A DNA stretch of 11,552 bases from a virus (IMGVR_UViG_2529293041_000008); one strand, 5' to 3'. Positions 1-11,552 are shown, counted from the stretch's first letter. Translations and numbers: made by a program. The notes: a model not told the origin generated them from the sequence alone.

Positions 1-2741
<2,741 letters not shown>

Positions 2742-2742
<1 letters not shown>

Positions 2743-3071
2743 TGGAGACGTTTCACTGGAAAGTGCGCCCGGATATGAATGTGGTATCAGAGCCGAAAGT
2801 GGTGACAGTGAAGCTGGGCGATGGTTATGAACAGCGTCGTGCGGCGGGACTGAATAACCAGTTGTCGACTTACAGCGTGACGATACGTGTTCGTAAATGT
2901 GAACACCCATCTTTAAAAGCCTTTCTGGAACGGCACGGTGGCGTCCGCGCATTTCAGTGGACGCCACCTTATGACTGGAAACCGATTAGGGTGGTTTGTC
3001 GTAAATGGTCGGCAAGCGTGGGGGCGCTGTGGGTAACCATAACGGCAGATTTTGAACAGGTCGTGGCATAG
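2742..3071 (+). CDS. M: Minor tail protein M (tail tip assembly)
   Basis: 109 aa, the same length as lambda M. Translation METFHWKVRPDM...GDGYEQR...HGGVRAFQWTPPYDW...FEQVVA resembles lambda M from memory. Start overlaps the H stop. Confidence 0.9.
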
Positions 3072-3080
3072 GAGGCTCTG

Positions 3081-3779
3081 ATGCAGGATATTCCACAGGA
3101 AACACATCATGAGACGACACGCCTCACTCAGTCAGCCCAGGTGGTGCTCTGGGAAATCGATCTGACAGAGGTCGGTGGTGAACGTTATTTTTTCTGTAAT
3201 GAGCAGAACGAAAAAGGTGAGCCGGTTACCTGGCAGGGGCGGCAGTATCAGGCATACCCCATTCAGGGGACAGGATTTGAACTGAACGGCAAGGGCAGTG
3301 CTGCCCGTCCGACACTGACGGTTTCTAACCTGCACGGCATGGTCACGGGGATGGCGGAAGACCTGCAGAGTCTGGTCGGCGGAACGGTGGTCAGGCGTAA
3401 GGTTTACGCCCGTTTTCTGGATGCGGTGAACTTCGTCAACGGAAACAGCGACGCCGATCCGGAGCAGGAGGTGATCAGCCGCTGGCGCATCGAGCAGTGC
3501 AGCGAACTGAGTGCGGTCAGTGCCTCCTTTGTGTTGTCCACACCGACGGAAACGGATGGTGCTGTTTTTCCGGGGCGTATCATGCTGGCCAACACCTGCA
3601 CCTGGACCTATCGCGGTGATGAGTGTGGTTATCACGGTCCGGCTGTCGCGGATGAATATGACCAGCCGACGTCCGATATCACGAAGGATAAATGCAGCAA
3701 ATGCCTGAGCGGCTGTAAGTTTCGCAATAACGTCGGCAACTTTGGCGGCTTCCTTTCCATTAACAAACTTTCGCAGTAA
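3081..3779 (+). CDS. L: Minor tail protein L (tail tip assembly, Fe-S cluster protein)
   Basis: 232 aa, the same length as lambda L. AGGAGG lies 8 nt upstream of the ATG. Translation MQDIPQE...VVLWEIDLTEVGGERYFFCNEQNEKGEPVTWQGRQYQ...CTWTYRGDECGY...KCSKCLSGCKF matches lambda L closely from memory, including the C-terminal Cys cluster. Confidence 0.9.
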   Translation: MQDIPQETHHETTRLTQSAQVVLWEIDLTEVGGERYFFCNEQNEKGEPVTWQGRQYQAYPIQGTGFELNGKGSAARPTLTVSNLHGMVTGMAEDLQSLVGGTVVRRKVYARFLDAVNFVNGNSDADPEQEVISRWRIEQCSELSAVSASFVLSTPTETDGAVFPGRIMLANTCTWTYRGDECGYHGPAVADEYDQPTSDITKDKCSKCLSGCKFRNNVGNFGGFLSINKLSQ

Positions 3780-3783
3780 TCCC

Positions 3784-4527
3784 ATGACACAGACAGAATC
3801 AGAGATTCTGGCGCACGCCCGGCGATGTGCGCCAGCGGAGTCGTGCGGCTTCGTGGTGAGAACGCCGGAAGGGGAAAGATATTTTCCCTGCGTGAATATC
3901 TCCGGTGAGCCGGAGGCGTATTTCCGGATGTCGCCGGAGGACTGGCTGCGGGCAGAGATGCAGGGTGAGATTGTGGCGCTGGTCCACAGCCACCCCGGTG
4001 GTCTGCCCTGGCTGAGTGAGGCTGACAGGCGGCTGCAGGTGCAGAGCGATTTGCCTTGGTGGCTGGTCTGCCGGGGTGAGATTCATAAATTCCGCTGTGT
4101 GCCGCATCTTACCGGGCGGCGCTTTGAGCACGGGGTGACGGACTGTTACACGCTGTTCCGGGATGCTTATCATCTGGCGGGGATTGAGATGCCGGACTTT
4201 CATCGTGAGGATGACTGGTGGTGTAACGGCCAGAATCTCTATCTGGATAATCTGGAGGCCACAGGGCTGTATCAGGTGCCGTTGTCAGCGGCGCAGCCGG
4301 GCGATGTGCTGCTGTGCTGTTTTGGTTCATCGGTGCCGAATCATGCCGCCATTTACTGCGGCGACGGTGAGCTGTTGCACCATATTCCTGAACAACTGAG
4401 CAAACGAGAGAGGTATACCGACAAATGGCAGCGACGCACACACTCCCTCTGGCGTCACCGGGCATGGCACGCATCTGCCTTTACGGGGATTTACAACGAT
4501 TTGGCCGCCGCATCGACCTTCGTGTAA
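3784..4527 (+). CDS. K: Tail tip assembly protein K (N-terminal JAB/MPN-like domain plus C-terminal NlpC/P60-like domain)
   Basis: ATG at 3784 sits 4 nt after the L stop; the ORF-track start at 3742 lies inside L and was not used. HSHPGGLPWLSEAD fits the JAMM-type H-x-H-x7-S-x2-D motif. Cys in DCYTLF and downstream His residues fit an NlpC/P60 fold. The 103-nt out-of-frame overlap with I matches lambda; the shorter 199-aa lambda K annotation would correspond to Met49 here. Confidence 0.85.
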   Translation: MTQTESEILAHARRCAPAESCGFVVRTPEGERYFPCVNISGEPEAYFRMSPEDWLRAEMQGEIVALVHSHPGGLPWLSEADRRLQVQSDLPWWLVCRGEIHKFRCVPHLTGRRFEHGVTDCYTLFRDAYHLAGIEMPDFHREDDWWCNGQNLYLDNLEATGLYQVPLSAAQPGDVLLCCFGSSVPNHAAIYCGDGELLHHIPEQLSKRERYTDKWQRRTHSLWRHRAWHASAFTGIYNDLAAASTFV

Positions 4528-5072
4528 AAACGGGGGCTGAAGCCATCCGGGCGTTGTCCACACAGCTCCCGGCGTTTCGTCAGAAACTGAATGACGGCTG
4601 GTATCAGGTGCGCATTGCCGGGCGTGATGCAGGTGAAACCGAATTATCTGCCCGTCTTAATGAGCCGCTGGCAAATGGTGCCGTGATCCACATCGTGCCG
4701 CATCTGGCGGGAGCTAAAAGTGGCGGTGTGTTTCAGGTGGTGCTGGGGGCGGCGCTGATTGCGGTGGCATGGTGGAACCCTGTGGGCTGGCTGGGTGCCG
4801 CGGCTGTATCGGGCATGTATGCGGCAGGGGCCAGTATGATCCTGGGTGGTGTGGCCCAGATGCTGGCACCGAAAGCCCGGACGCCCACAGCGACCAGCAC
4901 GGATAACGGTAAGCAGAACACCTATTTCTCATCACTGGATAACATGGTTGCCCAGGGCAATGTTCTGCCTGTTCTGTACGGTGAAATGCGCGTGGGGTCT
5001 CGTGTGGTTTCTCAGGAGATCAGCACGGCAGATGAAGGGGACGGTGGTCAGGTTGTGGTGATTGGCCGCTGA
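4425..5072 (+). CDS. I: Tail tip assembly protein I
   Basis: 215 aa. GAGAGG lies about 12 nt upstream. N-terminus MAATHTLPLASPGMARICLYGDLQRFGRRIDLRV and C-terminus ...NGKQNTYFSSLDNMVAQGNVLPVLYGEMRVGSRVVSQEISTADEGDGGQVVVIGR resemble lambda I from memory. The I-J gap is 60 nt, as in lambda. Confidence 0.85.
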   Translation: MAATHTLPLASPGMARICLYGDLQRFGRRIDLRVKTGAEAIRALSTQLPAFRQKLNDGWYQVRIAGRDAGETELSARLNEPLANGAVIHIVPHLAGAKSGGVFQVVLGAALIAVAWWNPVGWLGAAAVSGMYAAGASMILGGVAQMLAPKARTPTATSTDNGKQNTYFSSLDNMVAQGNVLPVLYGEMRVGSRVVSQEISTADEGDGGQVVVIGR

Positions 5073-5090
5073 TGCAAAATATTTCATGTG

Positions 5091-5116
5091 AAACCGCCTC
5101 CGGGCGGTTTTGTCGT
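5091..5116 (+). other. Intergenic stem-loop between I and J (8-bp stem AAACCGCC/GGCGGTTT, loop TCCG, followed by a T-rich tract)
   Basis: Inverted repeat 5091-5098 / 5103-5110 followed by TGTCGTTT. Looks like a weak intrinsic terminator or RNA stability element inside the late tail operon. Function not determinable from sequence. Confidence 0.35.
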
Positions 5117-5132
5117 TTATGGAGCATGACGA

Positions 5133-8100
5133 ATGGGCAAAGGAAGCAGTAAGGGGCATACCCCGCGCGAAGCGAAGGACAACCTGAAGTCCACGCAACT
5201 GCTGAGTGTGATTGATGCCATCAGCGAAGGGCCGATTGACGGTCCGGTGGATGGATTAAAAAGCGTGCTGCTGAACAGTACGCCGGTGCTGGACAGTGAG
5301 GGGAATACCAATATCTCCGGTGTCACGGTGGTGTTCCGGGCTGGTGAGCAGGAGCAGACTCCGCCGGAGGGATTTGAATCCTCCGGCTCCGAGACGGTGC
5401 TGGGTACGGAAGTGAAATACGACACGCCGATCACCCGGACCATCACGTCGGCAAACATTGACCGACTGCGTTTTACCTTCGGTGTGCAGGCACTGGTGGA
5501 AACCACCTCAAAGGGGGACAGGAATCCGTCGGAAGTCCGCCTGCTGGTTCAGATACAACGTAACGGTGGCTGGGTGACGGAAAAAGACATCACCATTAAA
5601 GGCAAAACCACCTCACAGTATCTGGCATCGGTGGTGGTGGGTAACCTGCCGCCGCGCCCGTTCAATATCCGGATGCGCAGGATGACGCCGGACAGCACCA
5701 CAGACCAGCTGCAGAACAAAACGCTCTGGTCGTCATACACCGAAATCATCGATGTGAAACAGTGCTACCCGAACACGGCACTGGTCGGCGTACAGGTGGA
5801 TTCGGAGCAGTTCGGCAGCCAGCAGGTGAGCCGTAATTATCATCTTCGCGGGCGCATTCTGCAGGTGCCGTCGAACTATAACCCGCAGACGCGACAATAC
5901 AGCGGTATCTGGGACGGAACGTTAAAACCGGCATACAGCAACAACATGGCCTGGTGTCTGTGGGATATGCTTACCCATCCGCGCTACGGCATGGGGAAAC
6001 GTCTTGGTGCGGCGGATGTGGATAAATGGGCGCTGTATGTCATCGGCCAGTACTGCGACCAGTCAGTGCCGGACGGCTTTGGCGGCACGGAGCCGCGCAT
6101 CACCTGTAATGCGTACCTGACCACACAGCGCAAGGCGTGGGATGTGCTCAGTGATTTCTGCTCGGCGATGCGCTGTATGCCGGTATGGAACGGGCAAACG
6201 CTGACGTTCGTGCAGGACCGACCGTCGGATAAGGTGTGGACCTATAACCGCAGTAATGTGGTGATGCCGGATGATGGCGCGCCGTTCCGCTACAGCTTCA
6301 GCGCCCTGAAGGACCGCCATAATGCCGTTGAGGTGAACTGGATTGACCCGAACAACGGCTGGGAGACGGCAACAGAGCTTGTGGAGGATACGCAGGCCAT
6401 TGCCCGTTACGGTCGTAACGTCACGAAGATGGATGCTTTTGGCTGTACCAGCCGGGGGCAGGCACACCGCGCCGGGCTGTGGCTGATTAAAACAGAACTG
6501 CTGGAAACGCAGACCGTGGACTTCAGCGTGGGCGCAGAAGGGCTTCGCCATGTGCCGGGCGATGTCATTGAAATCTGTGATGATGACTATGCCGGTATCA
6601 GCATCGGCGGGCGCGTGCTGGCGGTAAACAGCCAGACCCGGACGCTGACGCTCGACCGTGAAATCACGCTGCCATCCTCCGGTACCACGCTGATAAGCTA
6701 GGTTGACGGAAGTGGCAATCCGGTCAGCGTGGAGGTCCAGTCCGTCACCGACGGCGTGAAGGTAAAAGTGAGCCGTGTTCCTGACGGCGTTGCCGGATAC
6801 AGCGTGTGGGGGCTGAAGCTGCCGACGCTGCGCCAGCGCCTGTTCCGCTGCGTGAGTATCCGTGAGAACGACGACGGCACGTATGCCATCACCGCCGTGC
6901 AGCATGTACCGGAAAAAGAAGCCATCGTGGATAACGGGGCGCACTTTGACGGCGACCAGAGCGGCACGGTGAATGGTGTCACGCCGCCAGCGGTGCAGCA
7001 CCTGACTGCCGAAGTCACCGCAGACAGCGGGGAGTATCAGGTACTGGCCCGCTGGGATACGCCGAAGGTGGTGAAGGGCGTGAGTTTCATGCTTCGCCTG
7101 ACCGTGGCAGCGGATGACGGCAGTGAGCGGCTGGTCAGCACAGCCCGGACGGCGGAAACCACATACCGCTTCACACAACTGGCGCTGGGGAACTACAGGC
7201 TGACAGTCCGGGCAGTAAATGCGTGGGGGCAGCAGGGCGATCCGGCATCGGTATCGTTCCGGATTGCCGCACCGGCAGCGCCGTCGCGGATTGAGCTGAC
7301 GCCGGGTTATTTTCAGATCACCGCCACGCCGCATCTTGCGGTTTATGATCCGACGGTACAGTTTGAGTTCTGGTTTTCGGAAAAGCGGATTACCGATATC
7401 AGGCAGGTTGAAACCAGCGCGCGCTATCTTGGCACGGGGATGTACTGGATAGCCGCCAGTATCAATATCAAACCGGGCCATGATTATTACTTTTATATCC
7501 GCAGTGTGAACACCGTTGGCAAATCGGCATTCGTGGAGGCTGTCGGTCAGGCGAGCGATGATGCGGAAGGTTACCTGGATTTTTTCAAAGGCCAGATAAC
7601 CGAATCCCATCTCGGCAAGGAGCTGCTGGAAAAAGTCGAGCTGACGGAGGATAACGCCAGCAAACTGGAGGAGTTTTCGAAAGAGTGGCAGGACGCTAAC
7701 GATAAGTGGAATGCCATGTGGGGCGTCAAAATTGAGCAGACCAAAGACGGCAAACATTATGTCGCGGGTATTGGCCTCAGCATGGAGGACACGGAAGAAG
7801 GCAAGCTGAGCCAGTTTCTGGTTGCCGCTAACCGTATCGCGTTTATTGACCCGGCAAACGGGAATGAAACGCCGATGTTTGTGGCGCAGGGCAATCAGAT
7901 ATTTATGAACGACGTGTTCCTGAAGCGCCTGACGGCCCCGACCATTACCAGTGGTGGAAATCCACCGGCATTTTCCCTGACATCAGACGGAAAGCTGACC
8001 GCTAAAAATGCGGATATCAGTGGCAGAGTGAATGCGAACGCCGGGACGCTCAACAATGTCACGGTAAATGAAAACTGTACGATTAAGGGCATGCTGGAGG

Positions 8101-8546
8101 CGACTCAGGTCAGAGGTGACTTCGTTAAAGCTGTATCCAAATCATTTCCGAAACAGGCTGGTACGTGGGGTAACACGGAAACACCAAACGGGACGGTTAC
8201 AGTCACCATCAGCGATGATCATAACTTTGACCGTCAAATCATTATTCCGCCCATTATCTTTAACGGAATAGCGTATAGCTATCCGGGAAGTGGTAATAAC
8301 CCGGGAGGTACAAGATACACGGGTTATGGTTTTGAAGTTCGCAAAAACGGTGTATTAATCGCATCCAGAGAAACTAAAGGGGCCATTCCCGGTAGCTACA
8401 GTGCGGTTATTGATATGCCGAGTGGCAGGGGAAGCGTCACTCTGGAGTTTAAGGTTTTCCATAAAGGCAATCAGTGGGCAGGTAATATCACCGACTGTAC
8501 GGTGATTGTGACCAAAAAAGCCGCTTCCGGCATCAGTATTCGTTGA
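5133..8546 (+). pseudogene. J: Central tail fibre / host specificity protein J, full length but interrupted by one in-frame amber codon (TAG 6699-6701); ORF-track pieces 5133-6701 and 6729-8546 are the same frame
   Basis: The two pieces are in the same frame and together span about 1136 codons, close to lambda J (1132 aa). N-terminus MGKGSSKGHTPREAKDNLKSTQLLSVIDAISEGPIDG is lambda-J-like. The sequence right after the stop ([29 protein letters not shown]) continues the J protein with no start codon or RBS. The last ~150 aa differ from lambda J as I recall it. Confidence 0.85.
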
Positions 8547-8566
8547 AATTGTTATAACCCATATAA

Positions 8567-8591
8567 GGGCACCAGAAATGGTGCCTTTTTT
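8567..8591 (+). terminator. Rho-independent terminator after J
   Basis: Stem GGCACC (8568-8573) / GGTGCC (8580-8585), loop AGAAAT, followed by TTTTTT (8586-8591). Confidence 0.6.
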
Positions 8592-8615
8592 ATTGCAGAA
8601 AAGCGAGAGGTAATT

Positions 8616-9218
8616 ATGCGTAAAGTTTGTGCAGCAATTTTGTCCGCAGCCATCTGTCTGTCCGTATCCGGTGCGCCTGCATGGGCGTCTGAACATCAGT
8701 CCACACTGAGCGCGGGGTATCTTCATGCCCGGACGAACGCTCCCGGTAGCGATAATCTTAACGGGATTAACGTGAAATACCGTTATGAATTTACGGACAC
8801 GCTGGGGCTGGTGACGTCATTCAGCTATGCAGGAGACAAGAATCGCCAGCTTACCCGTTACAGCGATACCCGCTGGCATGAAGATTCCGTGCGTAACCGC
8901 TGGTTCAGCGTGATGGCGGGGCCGTCTGTGCGCGTGAATGAATGGTTCAGCGCGTATGCGATGGCGGGTGTGGCTTACAGCCGTGTGTCGACTTTCTCCG
9001 GGGATTATCTTCGCGTAACTGACAACAAGGGGAAAACGCACGATGTGCTGACCGGAAGTGATGACGGTCGCCACAGCGACACCTCTCTGGCGTGGGGAGC
9101 TGGCGTGCAGTTTAACCCGACCGAATCCGTGGCCATTGATATTGCTTATGAAGGCTCCGGCAGTGGCGACTGGCGCACTGACGGTTTCATCGTGGGTGTC
9201 GGTTATAATTCTGATTAG
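8616..9218 (+). CDS. lom: Lom-family outer-membrane beta-barrel protein (Ail/PagC/OmpX family), lysogenic-conversion moron; C-terminus apparently altered by a 1-nt deletion
   Basis: GAGAGG RBS about 7 nt upstream. Signal peptide [24 protein letters not shown] followed by SEH. Alternating beta-strand pattern with ...DGFIVGVGY near the end. Sits between J and the tail fibre as in lambda and has its own downstream terminator. Ends GYNSD, lacking the family-typical terminal Phe. Confidence 0.85.
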
Positions 9219-9241
9219 CCAGGTAACACAGTGTTATGACA

Positions 9242-9267
9242 GTCCGCCGGTTCAGGCGGGCTTTTTT
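9242..9267 (+). terminator. Rho-independent terminator after lom
   Basis: Stem GTCCGCC (9242-9248) / GGCGGGC (9255-9261) with one G-U pair, loop GGTTCA, followed by TTTTTT (9262-9267). Confidence 0.6.
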
Positions 9268-9278
9268 GTGAGGTGAAT

Positions 9279-10549
9279 ATGGCAGTAAAGATTTCAGGTG
9301 TACTGAAAGACGGCACAGGAAAACCGGTACAGAACTGCACAATCCAGCTGAAAGCAAAACGTAACAGTACCACTGTGGTGGTGAACGCGCTGGCCTCAGA
9401 AATCCGGATGAAGCCGGGCGTTACAGTATGGACGTTGAGTACGGTCAGTACAGCGTTATTCTGTTGGTGGAGGGATTCCCGCCGTCACATGCCGGGACCA
9501 TCACCGTGTATGAAGATTCTCAACCCGGTACGCTGAATGATTTTCTCGGTGCCATGACGGAGGATGATGCCCGTCCGGAGGCACTGCGACGTTTTGAACT
9601 GATGGTGGAAGAGGTGGCGCGTAACGCTGAGGAGGCGAAGAAGAATGCCGGAGAGGCAGAGACGTCAGCGAGGAATGCGGGTATATCAGCCGGCCAGGCG
9701 GAAAAGAGTGCAGTAAATGCTGAGACTTCTGCAGGGGATGCATCGGAGTCAGCCCGGCAGGCGACGGAAAGTGCAGCCTCAGCAAAGCAGTCAGAGGATG
9801 CGTCCTCGTCCTCGGCTTCTGCGGCCGCTCAAAAAGCCAGTGAGTCATCACAAAGTGCAGCAGAAGCTGAATTGTCAAGAAAGACGGCAGAAAGTGCAGC
9901 CGGTAATGCATCCAGGGATGCAACGACCGCAGCAGAAAAAGCCCGGGAGTCAGCAGAAAGCGCACAGTCAGCGGAACAAAGCAGGATAGCGGCGGAAGAC
10001 GCCGTAAACCGAATCCCCACCGTGGTGGGACCTCCCGGGCCAAAGGGGGAACAGGGGCCCGCGGGTCCTCAGGGGCCGAAGGGTGATAAGGGAGAGCGCG
10101 GTGACACCGGCCCTGTCGGGGCAACCGGCGAACGGGGACCGGCAGGTGATGCTGGTCCGGCAGGCCCGCAGGGGCCGAAAGGTGACAGGGGAGAGCGGGG
10201 AGAGACCGGTCTGACGGGAAATGCAGGTCCACAGGGTCCAAAGGGAGATACCGGTGCGGCAGGCCCACAGGGACCGAAAGGAGAAACAGGTGCGGCTGGC
10301 CCGGTGGGGGCAACCGGACCTCAGGGACCGAAGGGCGACCCGGGGGAGACACAAATCCGTTTTCGTCTGGGGCCGGCGAGCATTATTGAGACAAACAGCA
10401 ATGGCTGGTTCCCGGATACAGATGGCGCACTCATCACCGGACTGACCTTTCTTGACCCCAAAGATGCCACACAGGTTCAGGGGCTGTTTCAGCATTTGCA
10501 GGTCAGGTTTGGTGACGGGCCGTGGCAGGATGTTAAGGGGCGTGGATGA
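9279..10549 (+). pseudogene. stf: Side tail fibre protein (lambda Stf-like N-terminus, Ala/Ser/Glu-rich coiled region, collagen-like repeat, C-terminal globular domain) with a -1 frameshift near codon 40
   Basis: ATG at 9279 is preceded by TGAGGTG. N-terminus [36 protein letters not shown] matches lambda Stf from memory. The frame then drifts into nonsense and stops at 9536, while the neighbouring frame continues with the Stf-like ...[60 protein letters not shown]. The shift is at the A-run in TCAGAAATCC (9396-9405). Confidence 0.75.
10028..10342 (+). repeat. Collagen-like repeat: 35 uninterrupted Gly-X-Y triplets within the tail fibre gene
   Basis: Direct translation: [105 protein letters not shown]. 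Confidence 0.9.
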
Positions 10550-10604
10550 AGTGGGCAGTGATACAGGCAGAACAGGAGAATGACATGAATATACTAAAAA
10601 ACTT

Positions 10605-10853
10605 ATGCAGCGTCTGTGTGGTTGCGGAAAGCATGATGGCCGTGAACACGTGCAGTCGCTTACAGCACAACTGCGTCTGGGGCCGGCAGACATCCTGGAG
10701 TCCGATGAGAATGGTATTATTCCGGAGCAGGACAGGGTAATCACGCAGGTGGTGATACTGGATGCAGATAAAAAGCAGATACAGTGCGTGGTAAGACCGC
10801 TGCAAATCCTGCGTGCTGACGGGGTGTGGGAAAATATTGGCGGGATGAAGTAA
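10605..10853 (+). CDS. Short ORF (82 aa) paralogous to the C-terminal domain of the upstream tail fibre; possible fibre-tip or chaperone-like module, or a remnant of a second fibre gene
   Basis: ...AQLRLGPADILESDENGIIPEQDRVITQVVILDADKKQIQCVVRPLQILRADGVWENIGG aligns with the fibre C-terminus ...[62 protein letters not shown]. An identical 14-mer CGTCTGGGGCCGGC occurs at 10364-10377 and 10674-10687. No good RBS before the ATG at 10605, so start and frame are uncertain. Followed by a terminator-like hairpin. Confidence 0.45.
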   Translation: MQRLCGCGKHDGREHVQSLTAQLRLGPADILESDENGIIPEQDRVITQVVILDADKKQIQCVVRPLQILRADGVWENIGGMK

Positions 10854-10868
10854 CCCGACAGCTTCACA

Positions 10869-10897
10869 AAACCGGAGTCCGGCTCCGGTTTTTGTTG
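10869..10897 (+). terminator. Terminator-like hairpin after the short fibre-paralog ORF
   Basis: Stem ACCGGAG (10871-10877) / CTCCGGT (10883-10889), loop TCCGG, extendable by A-T pairs, followed by TTTTGTTGT. The T tract is interrupted, so strength is uncertain. Confidence 0.5.
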
Positions 10898-11084
10898 TCA
10901 TGTCATGGTGATGTTTGTTAATGAAGGCTTGAGGGAATATTTATCCGTATGAAGGAATATGGTAATGCCTGGATTAATATCATATGTGTCATCGGCTTCA
11001 TCGTGAATGAGATGATGGAGCTGCGTCAGCAGGTAATGGAGGGGCAGATTGGTGGATTTCTCCTGGGAGGGGCTGTCTCTTATA

Positions 11085-11110
11085 CACAAATCCCCACCCG
11101 GGGATTTGTG
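11085..11110. repeat. Perfect 11-bp inverted repeat with 4-nt spacer (CACAAATCCCC-ACCC-GGGGATTTGTG) overlapping the inner part of the IS terminal repeat
   Basis: Arms 11085-11095 and 11100-11110 are exact reverse complements, read directly from the sequence. Confidence 0.8.
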
Positions 11111-11237
11111 ATGTCTGTCAGTCTGCTTTAGGGGGACTCTTTCCATCCGGTAGTTTCCTTCCTCCCCGGCAGCGATTTTTTGAACTTTTTCCTCACCCGT
11201 TGATCTTCTCTTATATTTCATTTTCTTCGGGTCTGTT

Positions 11238-11552
11238 ATGGTACTTTCTGATTGTTATTCATGGGCTAACGAGCAGTTTTGACATGCCCGTCTCGGTGAT
11301 CCGCGTCGTACACGACGCCTTGTGTCACTGGCCTCTTCTCTCGCTCAGCATGCAGGTCTTTCTATTGTGAAATCATCCCAGTCCACTGCTCAGGTTGAAG
11401 GTGCGTACCGCCTGATACGTAACCCGTCTGTGTCCCCGCAAGCCATTGCCGAAGCCGGATTTACCGCCACTGTAAGGGCATGTGAGGCTCATCCGCTGCT
11501 CCTCGCGCTGGAAGACACCACCACCATTAACTTCAGTCACAGTACGGCATCT
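11238..11552 (+). pseudogene. IS50/Tn5-like transposase N-terminal region (3' end outside window), interrupted by an in-frame TGA at codon 15 (11280-11282)
   Basis: MVLSDCYSWANEQF-TGA-HARLGDPRRTRRLVSLASSLAQHAGLSIVKSSQSTAQVEGAYRLIRNPSVSPQAIAEAGFTATVRACEAHPLLLALEDTTTINFSH aligns in frame with the Tn5 Tnp N-terminus as recalled (...DWAKSVFSSAALGDPRRTARLVNVAAQLAKYSGKSITISSEGSKAMQEGAYRFIRNPNVSAEAIRKAG...LLAIEDTTSLSYRH). The TGA falls at a sense position (Ser18 of Tn5 Tnp). Confidence 0.65.

Follow-up and report, generated by a model that had tools for sequence, protein, structure and literature searches.

Why should the gene for a phage tail fibre be followed at once by a second, separately encoded copy of its own C-terminal domain, and why should the ribosome binding site in front of that copy serve a start codon in another reading frame? 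The question arises in the viral sequence IMGVR_UViG_2529293041_000008, an 11,552-nucleotide (nt) stretch of DNA that we call the window, and that represents the tail end of a lambdoid prophage. An earlier note on this DNA had proposed three readings: the second copy might be the remnant of another fibre gene, an alternative tip cassette through which recombination switches the fibre, or a free-standing domain that helps folding or trimerisation in trans. Comparison with relatives suggests an answer in two parts. In the window the feature is a frameshift-inactivated copy of a conserved late gene of 89 codons, and in the relatives the intact gene is maintained by selection and would most plausibly encode an accessory protein of the fibre system. 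The elements on which the argument rests are the following:

9273-10583, + strand: collagen-like side tail fibre gene of the EPclA type (PfN, coiled coil, collagen, PfC; Pfam PF08400, PF01391, PF06820)
10355-10540, + strand: PfC domain (Phage_fiber_C, PF06820) of the fibre, its trimerisation knob
10364-10377, + strand: first copy of a shared 14-mer, encoding the conserved RLGPA motif
10542-10549, + strand: extra G at 10542 and the stop that follows from it, from alignment with loci L001, L002 and L003
10574-10578, + strand: Shine-Dalgarno (SD) sequence AGGAG, within the last codons of the intact fibre gene
10585-10853, + strand: small PfC gene of 89 codons, a pseudogene here with one A lost and a 270-nt RefSeq coding sequence in relatives
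10596-10601, + strand: run of six A (A6; A7 in relatives), the frameshift parting the ATG at 10585 from the PfC frame
10665-10850, + strand: PfC domain of the small gene (PF06820), in the frame of the open reading frame (ORF) 10605-10853
10674-10687, + strand: second copy of the shared 14-mer, in the small gene
10868-10897, + strand: terminator-like hairpin and U-run (11-bp stem, 3-nt loop), closing the unit of fibre and small gene

The two C-terminal segments are paralogues, as the earlier note had claimed of the second, separate ORF. Both match PF06820, for which the Pfam gathering score is 25 bits: residues 310-371 of the fibre ORF 9428-10549 score 119.8 bits (E = 6e-35) and residues 21-82 of ORF 10605-10853 score 122.7 bits (E = 8e-36). 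The protein identity put at about 40% survives a BLASTP alignment, with 24 of 61 residues identical (39%, E = 8e-15). The 14-mer said to be shared, CGTCTGGGGCCGGC, does occur at both positions, where shuffled sequences lead one to expect none, and it forms the core of a 27-nt direct repeat (78% identity, spacing 310 nt). It is not conserved, however: in most relatives the longest word common to the two modules is 9-11 nt, and overall the modules are 52% identical in DNA. Between E. coli and Salmonella the small-type PfC is 60-63% identical and the fibre-type PfC 35%, while identity across the types is 29-37%. The duplication is therefore old, with the paralogues kept apart and the small one the better conserved, and the two have been distinct since before the E. 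coli and Salmonella lineages split.

The conflict between ribosome binding site and frame has a simple origin. In the window the AGGAG does serve an ATG at 10585, seven bases after it and one base after the fibre TGA, in a frame other than that of the ATG at 10605, just as the note described. That frame ends after 51 codons, and the window holds no uninterrupted frame of 89 codons. With A7 restored, the ATG at 10585 opens a single 89-codon frame to 10853, in which the ATG at 10605 is the internal codon Met8. The conflict thus exists because one A has been lost from the A7 run, and alignment with relatives shows the frameshift, A7 versus A6, that joins the 10585 start to the 10605 frame, a possibility that the note had raised. 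At this junction the window differs from its relatives by two private 1-nt changes, the loss from A7 to A6 and the G gained at 10542. To gauge variation in relatives we used two samples, 85 loci fetched by protein similarity, which are biased toward conserved proteins, and 120 stretches retrieved with a DNA pattern that surrounds the start codon, which are much less so. In the latter the run is A7 in 117 of 120 copies and A6 in two unrelated IMG/VR copies (L137 and L154); the run looks slippage-prone, whether by mutation or in sequencing. We also note that the A7 run of the relatives (10595-10601) forms an in-phase X XXY YYZ heptamer (cuA AAA AAA).

The fibre gene itself is broken across two frames in the window, by a 1-nt deletion near 9399 and the 1-nt insertion at 10542. 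The extra G leads to a premature stop at 10547-10549, so that the conserved C-terminal tail is lost; the ancestral stop is the TGA at 10581-10583, and an intact orthologue of 437 amino acids is present in locus L003.

What the note had named as a possible outcome, that related genomes would show the segment as the 3' end of an unrelated gene, is contradicted by the relatives, which carry an intact 270-nt coding sequence at the matching position, named in RefSeq "phage tail fiber C-terminal domain-containing protein". The repaired product of the window is 100% identical to the intact IMG/VR copies L004-L006 and aligns over its full length with PHROG 576 (positions 1-89 of 89, E = 3e-59). It consists of a short basic N-terminal helix, a variable linker and the PfC domain; a PDB sequence search, NCBIfam and PADLOC returned nothing for it. 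A lipoprotein or metal site at the N-terminus (LCGCGKH) was considered and rejected, since charged residues precede the Cys and the Cys/His residues are not conserved in Salmonella (KHYLSGGDK, P0200). The terminator-like hairpin reported downstream is borne out by folding (10868-10892, -17.2 kcal/mol, z -3.4), which a simple terminator scan did not flag, and the same stem with a different loop is found in the Salmonella locus L086. After the small gene RefSeq also annotates a 23-codon "tail assembly protein" relic (L001 4556-4624, corresponding to about 10855-10923 of the window), which overlaps the terminator and has no NCBIfam match.

The intact gene bears the marks of selection. Among the 85 protein-sampled loci the small gene is intact in every one, and the junction reads AGGAG-AA-TGA-C-ATG in 83, with the same positions found in the window; in the DNA-pattern sample 114 of 118 complete copies (97%) are intact. 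The ratio of nonsynonymous to synonymous polymorphism (pN/pS) is 0.12 for the protein-sampled and 0.20 for the DNA-pattern-sampled copies, against 1.0-3.5 for shifted-frame controls. By part, the latter sample gives 0.16 for the PfC domain and 0.64 for linker codons 13-22, and the fibre's own PfC has a value of 0.23. Judged by these comparisons, the small gene is kept by purifying selection. Codon 81 (10825-10827 of the window) takes five residues (T, R, V, K and A) among related copies and is possibly a surface hot spot in an otherwise conserved domain.

The architecture extends to Salmonella, where a prophage homologue of 79 amino acids, 47-59% identical, also shows the N-terminal pattern M-x-I-[LF]-K-K-[IL] and follows a non-collagen fibre that likewise ends in a PfC-like domain. 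Its ATG overlaps the fibre end by 14 nt and is preceded by AGGAGG, with an in-frame TAA 6 nt upstream of it, and initiation there must therefore be independent. Relative to the fibre, the small gene is in the +1 frame in E. coli and in Salmonella alike.

Published experiments bear on the protein and its partner. Ghosh et al. (2012, PMC3368898), who laid out the EPclA domain scheme of PfN, coiled coil, collagen and PfC, found isolated PfC to be a trimer by size-exclusion chromatography with multi-angle laser light scattering, hence an autonomous trimerisation domain, and recombinant fibre to trimerise and refold by itself; the small gene goes unmentioned in their paper. In a systematic deletion of genes of phage Sp5, the fibre gene ORF67 was essential, the delta-ORF67 phage being non-infectious, whereas ORF68, the small-gene homologue, was among the non-essential late genes, and phage without it were infectious on a K-12 host (Mondal et al. 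2016, PMC5155283). That study detected no signal for frameshifting, and its authors proposed that the gene is an "intragenomic reservoir" from which the fibre could vary. Virion proteomics, which the note had recommended, gives a partial result: the peptide table for purified phi24B virions contains two peptides unique to the small gene, ADGTWENIGGMK and VITQVVILDADKK, at low counts (10.64898/2026.04.10.717836). The preprint's text does not discuss the small gene, and its table leaves the mapping of both peptides ambiguous between hypothetical fibre fusions and "gp59_start".

We consider it somewhat more probable than not that the small gene encodes a separately translated, trimer-forming, non-essential accessory fibre protein acting in trans. 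It would be translated on its own, coupled to translation of the fibre, and would form its own homotrimeric knob; the protein would then act in trans as a dispensable accessory of the fibre system, and association with fibres or virions at low occupancy may modulate adsorption or host range. Such a role would make the gene neither a DNA cassette nor an obligatory folding factor. Among the three readings of the earlier note, the free-standing domain in trans is the best fit, given the conserved SD and ATG, the selection and the virion peptides, while the more specific part of that proposal, a folding or trimerisation factor, does not stand, because the fibre trimerises alone (PMC3368898) and Sp5 is infectious without the homologue and not without the fibre (PMC5155283). 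A recombination cassette and a remnant fit less well, on our best reading.

Several observations count against the accessory protein. The lower pN/pS value comes from a sample biased toward conservation. In the phi24B table the two peptides have 3 counts each, compared with 38-181 for fibre peptides (10.64898/2026.04.10.717836), numbers that make a stoichiometric tip component unlikely and carry-over contamination possible; this scarcity in virions also argues against a stoichiometric tip cap. The same peptides would be expected from a frameshift fusion, and a comment by the phi24B authors in that table reads "Spike or just gp59?". Finally, the structure model of the small protein is weak (predicted local distance difference test scores of 57-71, with one of five models usable) and its fold matches are non-significant.

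A narrower form of the idea, which we put forward tentatively and think rather unlikely as it stands, is that the small protein trimerises by itself as a free copy of the fibre knob, is released together with the progeny and acts on adsorption in trans. It may, for example, cap fibre tips at low occupancy, or occupy a conserved cell-surface ligand so that new Shiga toxin (Stx) phages are not lost on debris or lysogens. This would explain why the protein is better conserved than the fibre tip across E. coli and Salmonella, why it is dispensable on K-12 and why it is scarce in virions.

Two rival explanations keep the gene product at the fibre tip. Programmed +1 frameshifting, in which some ribosomes would shift near the end of the fibre and produce a fibre with a second PfC knob, is implied by GenBank record KU977420, which labels the gene "alternate tail fiber tip" and carries a note in which a slippery sequence and a pseudoknot are predicted to give a +1 shift. 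The shared +1 phase in E. coli and Salmonella agrees with it, in 99 of the 120 contexts the +1 frame has no stop in the 46 codons before the ATG, and the low phi24B peptide counts would suit a rare event, of the kind for which those authors searched. In 15 of the 120 contexts, however, the frame is open for only 13 codons, and in Salmonella the in-frame TAA closes it two codons upstream of the ATG. The junction RNA does not exceed its shuffles in structure (z +1.5, nested folds only), the Sp5 study saw no signal (PMC5155283), and a strong, conserved SD and ATG would be needless for a fusion. In phi24B the C-terminal peptide of the normal fibre is abundant (47 counts), and among the table entries examined there is no junction peptide, only peptides internal to the small gene (10.64898/2026.04.10.717836). 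We regard frameshifting as improbable. Read-through of the fibre TGA was also considered: another TGA follows about a dozen codons on (frame read by eye), so that no PfC fusion would result. If the small protein were instead a Tfa-like assembly helper, transiently aiding the folding of the fibre tip and mostly released, its position would make sense, directly 3' of the fibre gene, where lambda tfa, Mu U and T4 gp38 also lie, and so would its translational coupling to that gene. Its low abundance in the phi24B virion table would fit too, the Mu tail fibre, in its crystal with the chaperone, gives the best fold matches, though these are non-significant, and RefSeq shows only the 23-codon tail assembly relic after the small gene. 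Yet Pfam finds only PF06820 in the 82-residue window ORF and the repaired 89-residue protein has no NCBIfam match, so that nothing in these results ties it to tail-fibre assembly families; recombinant fibre trimerises and refolds in its absence (PMC3368898), and deletion of ORF68 does not reproduce the non-infectious phenotype of delta-ORF67 (PMC5155283). A helper of this type thus seems to us an improbable explanation as well.

The other two rivals concern the DNA rather than the protein. The small gene could be a silent reservoir, a spare tip module that recombines with the fibre gene and so varies the fibre C-terminus, as was proposed for Sp5 ORF68 (PMC5155283), and rare recombinants do exist: collagen joined to a small-type PfC in P0064, and the small/fibre chimera P0121 within a triplicated arrangement in L087. 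These, however, are singletons of 1-4 sequences, against hundreds to thousands in clusters of the standard arrangement, and the L087 chimera is 10 residues out of register. The modules lie in direct orientation, and exchange between them would therefore be deletion; with 52% DNA identity, their longest common words are usually 9-11 nt and reach 14 nt in the window. The window has no long inverted repeats, and the only one nearby, a weak repeat flanking the small gene (18 nt, 78%), is within chance and was discarded as a candidate. In the relatives inspected, the annotation around the pair shows neither an invertase nor a reverse transcriptase, and the neighbours there are Lom and type III secretion system effector genes with no recombinase annotated; the window's own ORFs were only partly scanned for families. 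Nor would one expect of a silent cassette a conserved SD and ATG, or purifying selection that includes codons 1-20, an N-terminal extension with no counterpart in the fibre, and the paralogues have been distinct since before the E. coli/Salmonella split. The switching cassette of the earlier note is thus not supported, and we hold a silent reservoir to be quite improbable. A diversity-generating retroelement was rejected on the repeat identity of 52% and the lack of an annotated reverse transcriptase in the inspected relatives. The least probable of the explanations considered, in our estimate a very remote one, is that the gene is a functionless leftover of an old tip replacement, awaiting decay. 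The frameshifted window copy would fit this, as would the damaged copies often met in genomes rich in prophages, of which cluster P0052, with 762 members, is an example, and the partial third copies scattered in some loci. For the family, however, the reading is largely refuted by the selection tests: pN/pS of 0.12-0.20 is specific to the frame, 97% of the complete copies sampled by DNA pattern are intact, the Salmonella orthologues retain the architecture, and peptides are listed for phi24B. Selection and intactness together exclude a mere remnant for the family, and the remnant proposed by the note describes only the decaying copy in the window.

The accessory fibre protein, if that is what it is, belongs to a widespread family. 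Among the 5,426 complete E. coli genomes, 698 contain the fibre 3' end together with the small gene and carry a median of 12 copies each, and the copies in complete genomes number roughly 7,700. The small-type and the fibre-type PfC each occur in 296 phage records with an identical organism breakdown, all matches being at least 80% identical, and these records cover siphoviruses (434, 2B8, cdtI, VT1-Sakai) as well as podoviruses (933W, VT2-Sakai/Sp5). The Salmonella-type small protein, searched against the same phage collection, matched only these E. coli phage records. The wider family is a narrow one: among 1.84 billion proteins the profile matches just 83 clusters at 50% identity, with E. 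coli, E. albertii, Citrobacter rodentium and Salmonella enterica as their sources. One small gene that is 92% identical comes from a Xanthomonas pisi assembly, where it lies on a contig of 725 nt (L085 295-561), and most likely represents contaminating E. coli DNA. Although the note had called two of its readings unusual, the arrangement itself is the rule for such phages: every PfC-tipped tail-fibre gene of E. coli lambdoid and Stx phages is followed by the small gene, and in Shiga-toxin and related E. coli prophages this is ordinary. The family is already annotated and discussed, and papers and database notes have described it as a tandem paralogue and put forward the idea of an "alternative tip". 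Our literature search, which included AU6Stx1, found no paper describing the "alternate tail fiber tip" annotation.

The relatives also contain several rearranged forms. Fused or exchanged modules, for which the note had suggested looking, were found in P0064, P0066 and P0121, but they are rare. P0064 and P0066 are deletion fusions of the collagen domain or the J protein to a small-type PfC, with joints at GPAD/AAD microhomologies, in clusters of 1-4 sequences. In L087 (1382-3246, one E. coli assembly) the fibre is followed by a 92-residue chimera, the small-gene N-terminus joined to the fibre PfC and tail at the offset given above, and then by a normal small gene, an arrangement produced by unequal crossover between the two paralogues. 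P0147 is a 565-residue collagen-containing protein with four tandem repeats resembling the C-terminal half of PfC (…VVVLDAD…GILRVRxADGTWxEI…), which indicates that PfC-like modules can be strung in one chain. In L005 (3954-4100) and 13 other loci among L001-L085, part of the small-type PfC is present a third time, about 950 nt downstream, between an inserted LuxR-like gene and an NleG gene; this piece covers residues 37-85, is about 75% identical and lies in no intact ORF. Cargo seems to be inserted with the 3' half of the small gene as its boundary or anchor.

The surroundings of the pair in the window are those of a prophage in decay:

39-332: 3' fragment of an IS21-type istB, the left bound, which truncates the tape-measure gene
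after the istB fragment and before Lom: pieces of the tape-measure gene, then M, L, K, I and J
8616-9218: Lom
about 11062 to 11552: left end of ISEc13 (IS4-like), with the Tn5-like end CTGTCTCTTATACACA at 11073
934 and 2037 (tape measure), 9206 (lom 3' end), 9399 and 10542 (fibre), 10596-10601 (small gene): 1-nt indels relative to NZ_CP090611

ISEc13 stands where relatives carry NleG/NleH-type effector genes. Among complete E. coli genomes the closest relative is NZ_CP090611, which is intact and 98.3% identical to the window, and against which the inactivating changes spread over 532-10853. Some of the indels listed may be homopolymer sequencing errors. In J, two substitutions relative to NZ_CP090611 turn a CTG into an in-frame TAG stop (6699-6701); this nonsense codon is unlikely to be a sequencing artefact, so that the prophage looks truly degraded and bounded by insertion sequences. 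Fibre gene and small gene both appear to be dead in the window.

For the window itself the outcome is mundane: a decayed copy of an annotated gene, whose mismatch of ribosome binding site and frame is a one-base deletion. The intact gene has a wider interest, as it accompanies the fibre tip in essentially all Stx-converting and related E. coli prophages and marks the boundary beyond which type III effector cargo gets inserted. Its function would bear on the adsorption and spread of Stx phages.

The nearest known counterparts are ORF68 of the Stx2 phage Sp5 (VT2-Sakai), ST933Wp60 of 933W and the small fibre gene of phi24B ("gp59"), to which the repaired product of the window is 92-99% identical. 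Like the window gene they start one base after the fibre stop and share the same terminator; the window copy differs from them in lacking one A of the A7 run, which makes it a pseudogene, and it follows an EPclA-type siphovirus fibre, whereas the short-tailed Stx phages have an EPclB fibre upstream. The PfC of the EPclA and EPclB fibres is the same PF06820 domain, shown by experiment to be a trimerisation knob that nucleates the collagen helix (PMC3368898). The small-type PfC is only 29-39% identical to it, a short basic helix and linker replace the collagen shaft, and the small protein is without the fibre-type C-terminal motif FGDGxWQDxK..L..VG and tail. The genes for lambda Tfa, Mu U/U' and T4/T2 gp38 resemble the small gene in lying directly after the fibre gene and being co-expressed with it, and some of their products remain on the tip; the small protein, however, has no sequence relationship to Tfa, U or gp38, is itself a paralogue of the fibre tip, and is not needed for Sp5 infectivity. 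In the Mu G segment with Gin and the P1 C segment with Cin, a second C-terminal fibre module adjoins the expressed one, as it does here. No invertase or crossover sites of this type were seen among the window's repeats or in the annotation of the relatives inspected, and, unlike the Mu and P1 modules, that of the small gene lies in direct orientation, has its own SD and start codon, and is only 52% identical in DNA to its neighbour.

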